A DNA stretch of 24,113 nt, from the NCBI RefSeq assembly GCF_003334355.1, contig NZ_QOWP01000044.1; one strand, written 5' to 3'. Within the stretch, counting starts at the first letter, position 1. Each line of letters starts with the position of its first letter. Both the position numbers and the translations under genes were made by a program. The notes beneath the pieces were generated by a model, which saw nothing but the letters and a program-made list of their open reading frames with translations, was not told the DNA's origin and did not search any database. Positions 12,337 through 18,336 of the stretch are shown here, one piece after another. Source of the DNA: Escherichia coli. Its GTDB lineage: Bacteria > Pseudomonadota > Gammaproteobacteria > Enterobacterales > Enterobacteriaceae.

Positions 12337-13047
12337 ATGAACGCTGAGCGTAAATTTCTTTTTGCCTGTCTTATTTTTGCGCTGGTCATTTACGCTATCC
12401 ACGCTTTCGGTTTATTCGATCTGCTCACCGATTTACCCCACTTACAGACACTCATCCGCCAGAGCGGATTTTTCGGCTATAGCCTCTATATTCTGTTATT
12501 CATCATTGCCACCCTCTTGCTGTTACCAGGAAGCATACTGGTGATCGCGGGAGGAATAGTTTTTGGCCCGCTCTTAGGGACACTACTCTCATTAATTGCC
12601 GCCACGCTGGCCTCCTCGTGCTCATTCCTGCTGGCGCGCTGGCTGGGACGTGATTTACTGCTGAAATACGTTGGCCATAGCAATACCTTCCAGGCCATTG
12701 AAAAAGGCATTGCGCGTAACGGTATTGATTTTCTTATTCTGACCCGCTTAATCCCGTTGTTTCCTTACAATATTCAAAATTACGCTTACGGATTAACCAC
12801 AATCGCCTTCTGGCCTTATACCCTTATTTCGGCACTCACGACCCTACCCGGTATTGTTATTTATACCGTGATGGCAAGCGATCTCGCCAATGAAGGCATT
12901 ACGCTGCGCTTTATTTTACAACTCTGTCTGGCGGGCCTGGCGCTGTTTATTCTCGTCCAGCTCGCAAAACTCTACGCCCGACACAAACATGTGGATCTGT
13001 CTGCTTCGCGCCGCAGCCCACTTACTCACCCAAAAAATGAAGGATAG
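12337..13047 (+). CDS. ydjX: DedA/TVP38-family inner membrane protein
   Basis: Track ORF starts with TTG at 12289; trimmed to the ATG at 12337 (MNAERKFLF..., 236 aa) preceded by AGGAA; multiple predicted TM helices. Confidence 0.8.
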   Translation: MNAERKFLFACLIFALVIYAIHAFGLFDLLTDLPHLQTLIRQSGFFGYSLYILLFIIATLLLLPGSILVIAGGIVFGPLLGTLLSLIAATLASSCSFLLARWLGRDLLLKYVGHSNTFQAIEKGIARNGIDFLILTRLIPLFPYNIQNYAYGLTTIAFWPYTLISALTTLPGIVIYTVMASDLANEGITLRFILQLCLAGLALFILVQLAKLYARHKHVDLSASRRSPLTHPKNEG

Positions 13048-13051
13048 AACG

Positions 13052-13729
13052 ATGTTGCAACATTATTCAGTGTCATGGAAAAAAGGACTGGCTGCACTCT
13101 GTTTACTGGCTGTTGCTGGGCTTAGCGGCTGCGATCAACAAGAGAATGCGGCGGCAAAAGTGGAATACGACGGACTTTCGAACAGCCAACCGCTGCGTGT
13201 CGATGCCAATAACCATACGGTAACCATGCTGGTGCAAATTAATGGTCGTTTCCTCACCGACGACACTCGTCACGGTATTGTGTTTAAAGATGGCTCCAAC
13301 GGACATAAATCGCTGTTTATGGGTTATGCGACCCCGAAAGCATTTTATGAAGCCCTGAAAGAGGCAGGTGGTACGCCGGGCGAAAACATGACGATGGATA
13401 ATAAAGAAACGACTCATGTCACAGGCAGCAAACTGGATATTTCGGTCAACTGGCAAGGGGCGGCAAAAGCGTATTCCTTCGATGAAGTGATTGTTGACAG
13501 TAATGGCAAGAAACTGGACATGCGCTTTGGCGGTAATTTAACGGCAGCAGAAGAGAAGAAAACGGGTTGCCTGGTGTGTCTGGATAGCTGCCCGGTCGGC
13601 ATCGTCAGCAATGCAACATACACTTATGGTGCGGTTGAAAAACGTGGTGAAGTTAAATTCAAAGGCAATGCCTCAGTTCTCCCGGCGGATAACACGCTGG
13701 CAACGGTTACCTTTAAAATCGCCGAATAA
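13052..13729 (+). CDS. ydjY: Predicted lipoprotein of unknown function with a Cys cluster
   Basis: Trimmed to the ATG at 13052 (MLQHYSVSWKKGLAALCLLAVAGLSGCDQQ..., 225 aa); lipobox LSGC; cysteine cluster CLVCLDSCPVG near the C-terminus. Confidence 0.78.
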   Translation: MLQHYSVSWKKGLAALCLLAVAGLSGCDQQENAAAKVEYDGLSNSQPLRVDANNHTVTMLVQINGRFLTDDTRHGIVFKDGSNGHKSLFMGYATPKAFYEALKEAGGTPGENMTMDNKETTHVTGSKLDISVNWQGAAKAYSFDEVIVDSNGKKLDMRFGGNLTAAEEKKTGCLVCLDSCPVGIVSNATYTYGAVEKRGEVKFKGNASVLPADNTLATVTFKIAE

Positions 13730-16175: not shown

Positions 16176-17683
16176 TCTTTTTGCTGTGGGCGATGGTGGC
16201 GGTGATTTATGCACCGCTGATCCCGGCAGCTCTCACGCTGATATCGCCTGCTTTGTCGTTGACACACTGGCAGGCGTTATTTGCCGATCCACAGTTACCG
16301 CAGGCATTACTGGCAACGCTGGTGTCGACAACCATCGCGGCGGTCGGGGCATTGTTGATTGCCCTGCTGGTGATTGTGGCGCTGTGGCCTGGGCCGAAAT
16401 GGCAGCGTATGTGCGCCCGTCTGCCGTGGCTGCTCGCCATTCCCCATGTGGCTTTTGCCACCAGCGCCCTTCTGCTCTTTGCTGACGGAGGGCTGCTTTA
16501 TGACTATTTCCCGTATTTCACTCCGCCAATGGACCGATTTGGCATCGGTCTGGGCCTCACCCTTGCAGTGAAAGAAAGCGCATTTCTGCTGTGGATCTTA
16601 GCAGCAGTATTGAGCGAAAAATGGCTGTTGCAGCAGGTCATTGTGCTGGATTCGCTGGGCTACAGCCGCTGGCAATGCCTGAACTGGCTGCTGTTGCCCT
16701 CCGTCGCGCCTGCGCTGGCAATGGCGATGCTGGCGATTGTTGCCTGGTCGCTGTCGGTCGTGGATGTGGCAATTATTCTCGGGCCAGGTAATCCCCCGAC
16801 GCTGGCGGTAATTAGCTGGCAGTGGTTAACCCAGGGCGACATTGACCAACAAACAAAAGGCGCGCTTGCCAGCCTGCTGTTGATGCTGTTACTCGCCGCC
16901 TACGTTTTGCTGAGCTATCTGCTATGGCGCAGCTGGCGGCGCACTATTCCCCGCGTAGATGGCGTTCGCAAGCCTGCCACGCCTTTATTGCCGGGCAATA
17001 CGCTGGCGATTTTTTTACCCTTAACCGGTGTGCTGTGTGTGGTTCTGCTGGCGATCCTCGCGGATCAGTCGACGATCAATAGTGAAGCGCTCATCAACAG
17101 CCTGACAATGGGGCTGGTGGCGACATTCATCGCTTTGCTCCTGTTACTGCTGTGGCTGGAATGGGGGCCACAGCGTCGCCAGTTGTGGCTATGGTTGCCC
17201 ATTTTATTACCCGCTCTGCCACTGGTGGCGGGCCAGTACACGCTGGCGCTATGGCTGAACCTGGATGGAAGCTGGACGGCGGTGGTCTGGGGGCATCTGC
17301 TGTGGGTAATGCCATGGATGCTGTTTATCCTGCAACCCGCCTGGCAGCGCATTGATTCACGGTTAATTTTGATTGCGCAAACACTGGGCTGGTCGCGGGC
17401 CAAAATCTTCTTTTACGTGAAATGTCCGCTTATGCTACGCCCTACGCTGATTGCCTTCGCGGTGGGATTTGCAGTCGGTATTGCGCAGTATATGCCAACG
17501 CTGTGGCTGGGCGCGGGGCGTTTTCCGACGCTCACCACTGAGGCGGTGGCATTAAGCAGCGGCGGCAGCAACGGTATTCTCGCCGCCCAGGCTTTATGGC
17601 AACTGCTATTACCGCTTATTATTTTTGCCCTGACCGCGTTAGTCGCAAAATGGGTAGGTTATGTCAGACAAGGACTCCGCTAA
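16148..17683 (+). CDS. ynjC: ABC transporter permease (fused two-domain)
   Basis: Highly hydrophobic ORF; trimmed to the ATG at 16148 (MATPLRYALIF..., 511 aa); overlaps ynjB by 28 bp. Confidence 0.78.
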   Translation: MATPLRYALIFLLWAMVAVIYAPLIPAALTLISPALSLTHWQALFADPQLPQALLATLVSTTIAAVGALLIALLVIVALWPGPKWQRMCARLPWLLAIPHVAFATSALLLFADGGLLYDYFPYFTPPMDRFGIGLGLTLAVKESAFLLWILAAVLSEKWLLQQVIVLDSLGYSRWQCLNWLLLPSVAPALAMAMLAIVAWSLSVVDVAIILGPGNPPTLAVISWQWLTQGDIDQQTKGALASLLLMLLLAAYVLLSYLLWRSWRRTIPRVDGVRKPATPLLPGNTLAIFLPLTGVLCVVLLAILADQSTINSEALINSLTMGLVATFIALLLLLLWLEWGPQRRQLWLWLPILLPALPLVAGQYTLALWLNLDGSWTAVVWGHLLWVMPWMLFILQPAWQRIDSRLILIAQTLGWSRAKIFFYVKCPLMLRPTLIAFAVGFAVGIAQYMPTLWLGAGRFPTLTTEAVALSSGGSNGILAAQALWQLLLPLIIFALTALVAKWVGYVRQGLR

Positions 17684-18336
17684 TGCTCTGCGTGAAAAAT
17701 GTTTCGCTACGTTTACCAGAAAGCCGCTTGCTGACAAACGTTAACTTTACGGTGGATAAAGGTGACATTGTCACGTTAATGGGGCCGTCTGGCTGTGGAA
17801 AATCCACTCTGTTTTCATGGATGATTGGTGCACTGGCCGAACAGTTTTCTTGTACAGGTGAGCTATGGCTCAATGAGCAACGGATTGACATCCTACCCAC
17901 CGCACAGCGTCAGATTGGCATTCTTTTTCAGGATGCACTGTTATTTGACCAGTTCAGTGTCGGGCAAAATTTACTGCTGGCGCTACCGGCGACACTTAAA
18001 GGGAATGCCCGACGTAATGCCGTGAATGATGCACTTGAGCGTTCAGGCCTTGAGGGAGCTTTCCATCAGGATCCTGCCACTTTGTCTGGCGGTCAGCGAG
18101 CGCGCGTTGCTCTACTACGCGCCCTTCTCGCCCAACCAAAAGCGTTACTCCTGGATGAGCCATTCAGCCGTCTTGATGTGGCTCTGCGCGATAATTTTCG
18201 CCAGTGGGTGTTCAGCGAAGTTCGCGCCCTGGCGATCCCCGTCGTTCAGGTAACGCACGATCTCCAGGATGTTCCTGCTGATAGTTCTGTTCTGGATATA
18301 GCGCAGTGGTCAGAAAATTACAACAAACTGCGATAA
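17683..18336 (+). CDS. ynjD: ABC transporter ATP-binding protein
   Basis: Trimmed to the ATG at 17683 (MLCVKNV..., 217 aa); Walker A GPSGCGKST, signature LSGGQRARV, Walker B LLLDEP; start overlaps the ynjC stop (TAATG). Confidence 0.88.
   Translation: MLCVKNVSLRLPESRLLTNVNFTVDKGDIVTLMGPSGCGKSTLFSWMIGALAEQFSCTGELWLNEQRIDILPTAQRQIGILFQDALLFDQFSVGQNLLLALPATLKGNARRNAVNDALERSGLEGAFHQDPATLSGGQRARVALLRALLAQPKALLLDEPFSRLDVALRDNFRQWVFSEVRALAIPVVQVTHDLQDVPADSSVLDIAQWSENYNKLR

Follow-up and report, generated by a model that had tools for sequence, protein, structure and literature searches.

Several described systems resemble parts of the ydjX-ynjF region of Escherichia coli. DedA proteins of the COG0398 type are putative phospholipid scramblases, and fusions to disulfide-reductase domains are common among them (PMC10127716). 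YdjX and YdjZ belong to this subfamily, and the reported fusions parallel the HdrD-like-VTT fusions found here; however, the subfamily is reported to go with aerobic metabolism (PMC10127716), whereas YdjX and YdjZ are FNR-activated and have orthologs in anaerobes. In the gene neighbourhood of the radical-SAM enzyme ArsS with TIGR04282, TIGR04283 and TIGR04169, named 'arsenosugar biosynthesis' in NCBIfam, orthologs of YdjX, YdjY, YdjZ and YnjE are co-operonic in Campylobacter, Facklamia, Thermincola, Syntrophus and some Bacillota. TIGR04169 is a recognised AhpD-fold partner of ArsS, and YnjA shares its fold and its CxxC-[IV]-D signature. The E. coli locus, in contrast, lacks ArsS, TIGR04282 and TIGR04283; YnjA was tested for membership of TIGR04169 and falls outside it, and an ABC importer and YnjF are found in place of synthetic enzymes. 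The yedEF genes are co-regulated with ydjX-ynjD in E. coli (PMC7888660), and YedF and SelD adjoin YdjY and VTT genes in Deltaproteobacteria and Facklamia, although the window encodes no homolog of YedE or YedF and the link is one of regulation and neighbourhood only. YnjB has the fold of the PotD/PhnS/TbpA/FbpA/AfuA group (Foldseek probability 1.0, TM-score 0.55-0.66), which holds its nearest solved relatives, but at only 11-17% identity; it stays under every equivalog cut-off and has a subfamily of its own, NF008633. YnjC and YnjD together resemble double permeases and ATPases of the PhnU2/PhnT2 type. For YnjF and its Firmicute counterparts the top family is that of the phosphatidylinositol-phosphate and archaetidylinositol-phosphate synthases, with an intact catalytic motif but scores (62-97 bits) that fall short of the cut-off, 180.

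The window, the whole 24,113-nucleotide stretch that was analysed, is E. coli chromosome. A match was found in 5425 of 5426 complete E. coli genomes, and in 5384 of them at least 80% of a 7-kb query was covered. Gene coordinates (Table 1) are those of the RefSeq annotation of a 100%-identical genome, converted to window positions.

Table 1. Genes, motifs and putative regulatory sites of the ydjX-ynjF region, in window positions
Feature	Position	Strand	Description
FNR box TTGAGAAAAATCAA	12214-12227		xthA-ydjX intergenic region; one mismatch to TTGAT-N4-ATCAA
ydjX	12337-13047	+	DedA-superfamily membrane protein, TVP38/TMEM64 (VTT, COG0398) type; RefSeq annotation
ydjY	13052-13729	+	Exported lipoprotein with Cys cluster
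YdjY lipobox	13121-13132		LSGC
YdjY Cys cluster	13568-13591		C173-LV-C176-LDS-C180
ydjZ	13744-14451	+	Second VTT/DedA paralog
ynjA	14451-14999	+	AhpD/CMD-fold protein
YnjA Cys motif	14670-14687		C74-L-C76-E-F-C79
ynjB	15009-16175 (RefSeq); alternative ATG start at 15006	+	Periplasmic substrate-binding protein of ABC importer
ynjC	16148-17683	+	Fused double permease
ynjD	17683-18336	+	ABC ATPase
Promoter-like site 5' of ynjE	18362-18389	+	TTCAGA, 16-nt spacer, TACAAT
ynjE	18403-19710	+	Periplasmic rhodanese, three rhodanese domains; RefSeq annotation
ynjF	19719-20339	-	CDP-alcohol phosphatidyltransferase
YnjF catalytic motif	20073-20147		DGLDGALAR...G..LD...D, intact

A first-pass annotation, made from the sequence alone, had described seven tightly packed genes followed by ynjE, and the RefSeq annotation agrees with this gene set, placing all seven on the + strand. 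The gaps of 4, 14, -1, 6, -28 and -1 bp that it listed were reproduced, the fourth becoming 9 bp with the RefSeq start of ynjB. This is ordinary operon packing and no chance arrangement; ydjXYZ-ynjABCD has in fact been published as a single unit directly activated by FNR, with a site at -60.5, on the basis of ChIP and RNA-seq (PMC3688515). A consensus scan of positions 12000-20500 found no sigma-70-like site inside ydjX-ynjD, and its sole match was the one just 5' of ynjE, which is described as a separate FNR-activated unit with its own promoter and a site at -41.5. The cluster has not been overlooked, being annotated, with its regulation published and a hypothesis extant. As the same annotation had supposed, the papers searched, up to mid-2026, name neither a substrate nor a function for ydjX-ynjD. 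The assigned protein families also held up: YdjX and YdjZ are TVP38/DedA paralogs (26% identity to each other), YdjY has both a lipobox and a cysteine cluster, YnjA gave a Pfam CMD/AhpD-like match (E=5e-8), YnjB (Pfam SBP_bac_8), YnjC and YnjD form a complete ABC importer, and annotation and family models agree that YnjE is a rhodanese.

Seven genes, however, proved too narrow a unit, and ynjE and the convergent ynjF have to be added. The functional unit extends from ydjX to ynjF, because in Citrobacter freundii and Kluyvera, which have no YdjY, a 57%-identical ynjA ortholog overlaps the start of ynjF. The presence of ydjY and the position of ynjA thus vary even within enterobacteria; Pfam PF09335 is found in the YdjX orthologs of Kluyvera and Citrobacter. 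Covariation of ynjF with the cluster extends across phyla. Five Firmicute taxa have YnjF-like genes directly next to ynjBCD-like ones, and a sixth YdjY locus also contains a YnjF-like gene.

The linkage of these genes was surveyed in 76 loci from 40 taxon groups, a partner being counted when it lay within 10 kb of YdjY, in flanks that were often cut by contig ends; partner families were confirmed above NCBIfam cut-offs. YdjY relatives, which occur in anaerobes of about 40 taxon groups, nearly always stand beside a YdjZ- or YdjX-type DedA protein. YdjZ shows the tightest linkage to YdjY of all members, its orthologs (E=1e-60 to 1e-84) being adjacent in 26 of the 40 groups, and the YdjX type adjoins YdjY in 19. 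HdrD-like Fer4/CCG proteins followed in 13 groups, YnjB in 10, TIGR04282 with TIGR04283 in eight, YnjF, ArsS and YedF in seven each, YnjE in six and SelD in five. A small four-helix membrane protein, absent from E. coli, accompanies YdjY in 31 of the 40 groups; fusions of a small membrane protein to YdjZ also occur. Since most YdjY loci (Gemella, Finegoldia, Peptostreptococcus) hold just YdjY and a YdjZ fusion, the YdjY/YdjZ core may work without a lipid or import branch. In Deltaproteobacteria, YdjX-type relatives are fused to an HdrD-like domain. The set formed by ydjX-ynjD, ynjE and ynjF is the enterobacterial version of a module distributed patchily among anaerobes of several phyla, and its probable task is the handling, at the membrane, of a compound of the selenium, sulfur or arsenic type. 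Our preferred reading, which we put forward tentatively, is an anaerobic envelope module that would combine thiol chemistry on a selenium-like element with the import, and not the synthesis, of a related organic compound, possibly with a link to phospholipid.

The thiol side of this reading draws on YdjY, YnjE and YnjA and on neighbouring genes. Cys173, Cys176 and Cys180 are invariant among YdjY relatives, and YdjY-rhodanese fusion proteins are present in the AlphaFold database. Thiol chemistry outside the cell is also suggested by the Facklamia YdjY operons, which encode a CcdA and TlpA-like reducing pair and a probable selenoprotein (U-x-x-C motif), although SelD beside YdjY in that genus may simply reflect this selenoprotein. 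YnjE carries a Sec-type signal peptide, and its orthologs (E=1e-57 to 1e-78) occur in YdjY loci of Campylobacter, Catonella and Peptostreptococcaceae; its physiological substrate is described in the literature as unclear, and its reported help in molybdenum cofactor sulfuration, in work cited in PMC7888660, speaks against this reading. YnjA resembles the NCBIfam 'YciW-related (seleno)protein' (E=6e-29, under the cut-off). An anaerobic iModulon, that is, a co-expressed gene set from independent-component analysis of transcriptomes, places ynjE, yedEF and yjiLM alongside the operon; a role in molybdenum/selenium usage was suggested by its authors (PMC7888660). In a ygfI mutant ydjY, ynjE, yjiL and yjiM drop together with hyc, frd and pfl. 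The redox or sulfur-linked transport function at which the first-pass annotation had hinted, an idea proposed earlier by the iModulon authors, is supported by this grouping (PMC7888660); simple sulfur transport by the ABC part is unlikely, because YnjB looks like a binder of organic ligands, not of oxyanions, its invariant residues being aromatic, acidic or amide as in organic-ligand binders.

One alternative, which we regard as rather unlikely but the best of those considered, is that inorganic selenium or sulfane sulfur supply is the only role: YdjY, YnjE, YdjX/YdjZ and YnjA would relay selenium or persulfide sulfur inward, from periplasm to cytoplasm, to serve selenoprotein formate dehydrogenases and the molybdenum cofactor under anaerobic conditions, while YnjBCD and YnjF would have an unrelated nutrient or lipid role. 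FNR control, the shared iModulon with its authors' proposal, the rhodanese, the three-cysteine lipoprotein and the CxCxxC protein all fit, as do a DedA-selenite link cited in the literature and the many loci that hold only YdjY and a VTT protein. In Deltaproteobacteria a cysteine desulfurase/selenocysteine-lyase-like gene, SelD and YedF adjoin YdjY. Against supply as the only role stand the translational coupling of ynjBCD within the operon, through its overlaps of 28 and 1 bp, the recurrence of YnjBCD- and YnjF-like genes with YdjY in 10 and seven taxon groups, and the ynjA-ynjF overlap in C. freundii and Kluyvera.

An unlikely scenario, somewhat behind the last, is anaerobic remodelling of membrane lipids with no special element involved, in which YnjBCD would import a head-group alcohol or amine, YnjF would build an unusual phospholipid from it, YdjX/YdjZ would scramble the lipid to the outer leaflet and the YdjY cysteines would bind a structural metal. 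The putative scramblase activity of COG0398 proteins, the intact YnjF motif together with its top matches, MprF-type flippase-like genes in six taxon groups with YdjY loci and the residues of YnjB are consistent with it, but it leaves the rhodanese, the HdrD-like fusions, CcdA/TlpA, SelD, YedF and the YdjY-rhodanese fusions unexplained. YdjX and YdjZ were also considered as undecaprenyl-phosphate flippases and rejected, since the UptA model, with its cut-off of 250, gave only 27 and 36 bits.

Salvage or detoxification of organoarsenic is more doubtful still. Here the module would handle compounds of the arsenosugar type, as suggested by what NCBIfam calls ArsS, TIGR04282 and TIGR04283, all of which score above cut-offs in YdjY operons; the AhpD-like partner TIGR04169 and the three-cysteine motifs of YdjY and YnjA, which resemble known As(III)-binding sites, point the same way. 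However, of about 80 loci only one has arsenic-resistance genes near YdjY, so selenium or sulfur is favoured over arsenic; selenium genes recur near YdjY and arsenic genes do not, the hosts are mainly oral or gut commensals and sediment anaerobes, YnjA falls outside TIGR04169, and E. coli has no ArsS in the locus.

YnjB, termed 'uncharacterized' as late as March 2026, scores 560 bits with NF008633 (cut-off 203), and its Firmicute orthologs fall in this family too, with 447-491 bits. It is best described as a distant PotD/PhnS-like predicted binding protein, whose structural neighbours do not specify the ligand. YnjC gives partial matches to the PhnU2, ModB and CysT permease models, and Firmicutes encode its counterpart as two separate genes, about 290 and 270 codons long. 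YnjD matches many ABC ATPase models, all under family cut-offs. The view taken from automatic annotation, an ordinary importer of the thiamine or polyamine type among unrelated neighbours, is very improbable for YnjBCD: some sources label YnjB a 'putative thiamine transport system substrate-binding protein', its best PDB sequence-profile matches are PotD-type and YnjD resembles ThiQ and PotA, but all thiamine and polyamine models stay far under cut-off (ThiQ: 130 bits against 245 and 298), TbpA ranks only 41st among the structural neighbours of YnjB (14% identity), positions 11000-21500 hold no TPP riboswitch or other Rfam match, FNR controls the operon, and linkage to non-transport genes is conserved across phyla, so that the thiamine label is unsupported.

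In the preferred reading of an anaerobic thiol and import module, YdjY, with its three invariant cysteines, and YnjE would carry a thiophilic element outside the membrane, most likely selenium, with sulfane sulfur and arsenic as alternatives. The YdjX/YdjZ pair would move the element, or a lipid bearing it, across the membrane, and a cytoplasmic redox thiol protein (YnjA in E. coli, the HdrD-like iron-sulfur protein elsewhere) would take it up or reduce it. In a second branch YnjBCD would import an organic compound that resembles a sugar, a nucleoside or an amine, and YnjF probably couples this compound to CDP-diacylglycerol. In the 15 taxon groups with TIGR04282/TIGR04283 or YnjF, YnjB occurs in eight, ArsS in five and both in none, a make-or-import pattern that is post hoc and based on these 15 groups and on 10-kb flanks, many of them cut by contig ends. 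A nucleoside-hydrolase-like gene occurs in make-type and import-type loci alike. Against this reading, the association with ArsS is one-sided: VTT and YdjY genes were absent from four sampled ArsS loci, and the ArsS family is far larger than that of YdjY. Bacteria with the ArsS-type enzyme and the TIGR04282/TIGR04283 transferases appear to make this compound themselves, whereas E. coli, whose locus lacks these enzymes, appears to import it.

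The gaps between the seven genes from ydjX to ynjD, which the first-pass annotation had put at 4, 14, -1, 6, -28 and -1 bp and taken to imply one operon, were reproduced exactly when RefSeq gene positions from a 100%-identical genome were converted to window coordinates. The published record agrees: in a genome-wide FNR study based on expression and ChIP, ydjXYZ-ynjABCD is given as one operon, directly activated by FNR from a site at -60.5, with ynjE as a separate FNR-activated unit (site at -41.5) (PMC3688515). A consensus scan detected no sigma-70-like site within the cluster. 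With a box at the promoter and FNR-dependent expression, the cluster belongs to the FNR regulon, and both its transcription as one operon and its control by FNR and anaerobic conditions are well supported. Upstream of ydjX in Citrobacter freundii and Kluyvera, no FNR box was found at up to one mismatch. The region is close to universal in the species: of 5426 complete E. coli genomes, 5425 match a 7-kb stretch and 5384 cover at least 80% of its length.

Features of the ydjX-ynjF region and its flanks, in window coordinates
Feature	Position	Strand	Source or remark
astCADBE	4891-10918	-	arginine succinyltransferase operon
xthA	11364-12170		follows astCADBE
FNR box TTGAGAAAAATCAA	12214-12227		one mismatch; matches the published ydjX site
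Inverted repeat CAACAAA / TTTGTTG	12225-12251		7 bp, 13-nt spacer
ydjX	12337-13047	+	RefSeq
ydjY	13052-13729	+	RefSeq
ydjZ	13744-14451	+	RefSeq
ynjA	14451-14999	+	RefSeq
ynjB	15009-16175, or start at ATG 15006	+	RefSeq
ynjC	16148-17683	+	RefSeq
ynjD	17683-18336	+	RefSeq
Sigma-70-like site	18362-18389		just upstream of ynjE; sole match of consensus scan
ynjE	18403-19710	+	RefSeq
ynjF	19719-20339	-	RefSeq
FNR-like box TTGATCCTGATAAA	20910-20923		one mismatch; inside ynjH, upstream of gdhA

Several smaller features were seen in the same region. The inverted repeat overlaps the right half of the ydjX FNR box and could be the site of a second regulator or a chance occurrence; the FNR-like box upstream of gdhA recurs identically in C. 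freundii (L088:15463-15476). The astCADBE operon and xthA, upstream of the cluster, are ordinary annotated E. coli genes, and Citrobacter and Kluyvera have kept the same flank. Between the stop codon of ynjA and the ATG at 15006, which share one reading frame, there are 6 nt (14997-15008); a database protein of 574 residues (P0122, 10 member sequences), carrying both Pfam CMD and a binding-protein domain, has the length expected for a stop-loss YnjA-YnjB fusion.

The cluster had not been overlooked: it is an annotated operon under FNR control to which no function has been assigned, and a molybdenum/selenium hypothesis is in print. Independent-component analysis of transcriptomes placed this operon together with ynjE, yedEF and yjiLM in an uncharacterised anaerobic iModulon (a co-expressed set), which its authors suggested serves the use of molybdenum and selenium (PMC7888660). 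In a ygfI mutant ydjY, ynjE, yjiL and yjiM were lowered along with hyc, frd and pfl (PMC9068703), and ynjABCD was mildly induced when BaeR was overexpressed (PMC2731931). YnjB and YdjX are still counted as uncharacterised in papers of 2024-2026. Our literature search found no substrate assignment for the transporter, in keeping with the earlier view that its role is not established.

YnjBCD is a binding-protein-dependent ABC importer, complete as first described: binding protein, permease and ATPase are encoded together, their coding regions overlapping by 28 and 1 bp. YnjB matches Pfam SBP_bac_8 (E=1.6e-13) and falls in NCBIfam subfamily NF008633; YnjC is a fused double permease with partial matches to permease models and an ortholog that carries BPD_transp_1; YnjD matches ABC ATPase models. 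The predicted YnjB model (pLDDT 90) has PhnS, PotD, FbpA, AfuA and TbpA as Foldseek neighbours, whose ligands include polyamines, aminoethylphosphonate, iron, sugar phosphates and thiamine, and a sequence-profile search of the PDB reached only PotD-type proteins (PotD over about 50 residues, E=2e-5). These relatives are mixed and 11-17% identical, and no ligand could be read off them. For the most part the invariant YnjB residues are aromatic, acidic or amide, and so an organic compound suits the site better than an oxyanion, as judged from the sequence. Two ordinary importer assignments were examined, and neither held. Against the thiamine importer ThiBPQ stand the scores on ThiQ models (130 bits vs cut-offs of 245 and 298), the lack of any YnjB match to a TbpA model, the position of TbpA (2qry) as only structural neighbour no. 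41 at 14% identity, and the missing TPP riboswitch, Rfam giving zero matches across 11000-21500. For the spermidine/putrescine system PotABCD, PotA scored 129.6 bits vs a cut-off of 482.

The other proteins of the cluster also bear out their initial assignments. YdjX and YdjZ, first described as DedA/TVP38 paralogs, are 26% identical to each other over about 197 residues, are both named 'TVP38/TMEM64 family protein' in RefSeq, and have Kluyvera and Citrobacter orthologs with PF09335; they belong to the DedA superfamily, VTT domain, TVP38/TMEM64 type. A role as the undecaprenyl-phosphate flippase UptA, a DedA protein of COG0586 type, was rejected on their scores (27.5 and 36.4 bits vs an NF052604 cut-off of 250) and is also contradicted by the published DedA subfamily analysis. 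YdjY carries the expected lipobox (LSGC) and cysteine cluster (CLVCLDSC). A UniProt-style label makes it a 4Fe-4S ferredoxin; it was set aside, as there are only three cysteines (CxxCxxxCP), the Pfam Fer4 matches are weak (E=0.09-0.25) and the signal is of the Sec lipoprotein type without twin arginines. No ferredoxin appeared among the YdjY fold matches. In the largest E. coli YdjY cluster (4665 member sequences) the representative, P0001, has Ser at the otherwise invariant Cys173; this could be genuine variation or a sequencing error confined to that entry.

YnjA has the AhpD/CMD fold (PF02627; Pfam CMD E=5.3e-8, residues 50-122) with a CxxC motif, C76-E-F-C79, preceded by C74 (CLCEFC). TIGR04169, the arsenosugar-biosynthesis-associated peroxidase-like family (cut-off 120 bits), gave no match to it with E allowed as high as 0.1; on that model 190 bits was scored by a CMD protein whose gene lies beside one for ArsS, the radical-SAM enzyme of 'arsenosugar' neighbourhoods. 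Rhodanese domains were found in YnjE, whose gene comes after ynjD as first noted. YnjE is periplasmic, thiosulfate:glutathione activity was not apparent in assay, and its physiological substrate has been called unclear (PMC10215317). In the AlphaFold database, two proteins (A0A942RMC6 and A0A934E6M3) join a YdjY domain to rhodanese/sulfurtransferase domains, and these fusions link YdjY functionally to YnjE-type proteins.

YnjF is a CDP-alcohol phosphatidyltransferase by its motif: residues 65-89, DGLDGALARRRELTDAGGFLDISLD, fit D-G-x2-A-R-x7-8-G-x3-D-x3-D, and its orthologs carry PF01066. Its best matches were inositol-phosphate-lipid synthases, every one below cut-off. Assignment as a phosphatidylinositol-phosphate or archaetidylinositol-phosphate synthase was rejected (62.3 and 41.9 bits vs cut-offs of 170 and 180); its counterparts in Firmicutes reach 89-97 bits.

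The YdjY alignment was scanned against one genome per species, matching 148 species, and 80 loci were examined. Among these the distribution is patchy, covering Escherichia and some Citrobacter; the Firmicutes Peptostreptococcus, Finegoldia, Gemella, Facklamia, Catonella and several clostridia; the Epsilonproteobacteria Campylobacter concisus and Sulfurospirillum; and the Deltaproteobacteria Desulfarculus and Syntrophobacterales. Many loci are tight single-strand operons (e.g. Facklamia L077, Campylobacter L064). For a census of 76 loci in 40 taxon groups, open reading frames were searched with queries from the E. coli cluster and from recurrent neighbours, a partner being counted when it lay within 10 kb of YdjY. 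Scores above NCBIfam cut-offs confirmed the family identities. The most frequent partner was a small 4-helix membrane protein (31 of the 40 groups), followed by YdjZ-type (26) and YdjX-type (19) DedA proteins, an HdrD-like Fer4/CCG protein (13), YnjB (10), TIGR04282 with TIGR04283 (8), YnjF, ArsS and YedF (7 each), YnjE (6), SelD (5), an APH-fold kinase (4) and a nucleoside-hydrolase-like protein (3).

In Firmicutes this 4-helix protein is joined to the YdjZ N-terminus, and the E. coli operon lacks it; it is family-less and comes after YdjY (L064:3311-3688, L047:10585-11049, N-terminus of L014:10694-11878). The HdrD-like protein is fused to a YdjX-type protein in Deltaproteobacteria: the frame at L047:11046-12896, with similar ones in L024, L025, L048, L061, L078 and L081, encodes about 615 residues combining a YdjX-type VTT domain with an HdrD/GlpC-like domain that has two Fer4 and two CCG motifs. 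Searching the non-enteric YdjY loci at E up to 50 gave no YnjA-like protein, and there the HdrD-like protein appears to fill the cytoplasmic redox position. The kinase is frequently fused to TIGR04282, and Facklamia operons also carry a CcdA plus TlpA-like extracytoplasmic reducing pair. PrdB/GrdB-like frames in YdjY operons of Facklamia and Bacillus benzoevorans end at TGA (L077:3693-4160, L079:4973-5440, L083:4894-5361, L063:13115-13591); given the conserved YICHQSVGLIQ in frame beyond the TGA, these proteins probably contain selenocysteine in a U-x-x-C motif. Two further neighbours in Deltaproteobacteria, a CoA-transferase and an ABC-F ATPase, appear unrelated to the module.

In Kluyvera ascorbata (L087) and C. 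freundii (L088), ydjX-ydjZ-ynjBCD-ynjE stands without ydjY between xthA and nudG, making ydjY an optional member; a 57%-identical YnjA ortholog overlaps the ynjF start on the opposite strand, tying YnjA to YnjF. In the kind of co-occurrence analysis that had been proposed as a check, linkage holds across phyla, ydjY is optional within enterobacteria, and among the loci searched YnjA-like proteins were found in enteric ones only. The single operon stands but the seven-gene boundary does not, as cross-phylum linkage and the ynjA/ynjF overlap extend the functional unit to ynjE and ynjF. It is well supported that the unit reaches these two genes, and that it represents, in enterobacteria, a module shared across phyla that centres on YdjY and VTT proteins and has thiol or iron-sulfur redox partners.

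ArsS (TIGR04167), TIGR04282 and TIGR04283 were not matched in the E. coli and Citrobacter loci examined (L007, L011), and to our knowledge, as we assume here, they are absent from E. coli genomes at large; in 7-8 further taxon groups the YdjY loci do contain these genes. In the census no locus had both YnjF and the TIGR04282/TIGR04283 pair, and none both ArsS and YnjB. Of the 15 taxon groups that have one or other downstream branch, YnjB occurred in 8, ArsS in 5 and both in 0 (P ~0.007, a post hoc hypergeometric estimate for 10-kb flanks only). This complementary distribution suggests that some bacteria make a compound through ArsS and others, including E. coli, import it through YnjBCD. Approached from the ArsS side, a VTT or YdjY gene was found in 0 of 4 sampled ArsS loci, which limits the link to a subset; one of the four carries the AhpD-like partner TIGR04169.

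Our preferred, though tentative, explanation is that the unit combines envelope thiol handling of a selenium-like element with import of an organic compound. YdjY and YnjE would carry out thiol chemistry on the element outside the membrane, YdjX and YdjZ would take the element, or a lipid bearing it, across, and YnjA would be its cytoplasmic receiver. YnjBCD would take up a related organic compound, which YnjF may attach to phospholipid. Which element and which ligand are handled, whether lipid takes part and which way transport runs are all our inference. A purely inorganic supply route for selenium or sulfur, which would sit well with SelD and YedF, is unlikely. Lipid remodelling with no special element would use YnjF and the DedA pair, leaving the selenium genes aside, and is less probable again. 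Organoarsenic handling, to which the ArsS neighbourhoods point, is quite improbable: arsenic-resistance genes lie near YdjY in one locus only, whereas selenium genes are recurrent. An ordinary thiamine or polyamine importer, despite the PotD-type matches of YnjB, is very hard to credit on the ThiQ and PotA scores.

A bolder reading is a long shot that we rank between plain lipid remodelling and organoarsenic handling. E. coli and other YnjBCD/YnjF carriers would import a ribose-derived organoselenium or organoarsenic compound that neighbouring anaerobes make through ArsS-type radical-SAM pathways; YnjF would link it to phospholipid, and YdjX/YdjZ, YdjY and YnjE would display or process it on the membrane's outer face.

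New here are the cross-phylum comparative genomics, clearer bounds for the module and concrete predictions that can be tested. The comparative map identifies ydjX through ynjF as genes that belong together, singles out YdjY C173, C176 and C180 and YnjA C74, C76 and C79, narrows the candidate ligands to products of ArsS-type pathways, including selenium or arsenic sugars or nucleosides, and points to anaerobic, FNR-on conditions. These genes may bear on the route by which E. coli sources trace selenium for its anaerobic formate dehydrogenases and on the cargo of bacterial COG0398 DedA proteins. If the ordinary-nutrient reading were true, this would be merely an annotated operon with an unassigned importer. 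If the lipid-attachment reading were true, a cluster among the last uncharacterised E. coli core genes would represent a new lipid trait, one containing selenium or arsenic, and both the YdjY fold and a pair of COG0398 DedA proteins would gain a function.
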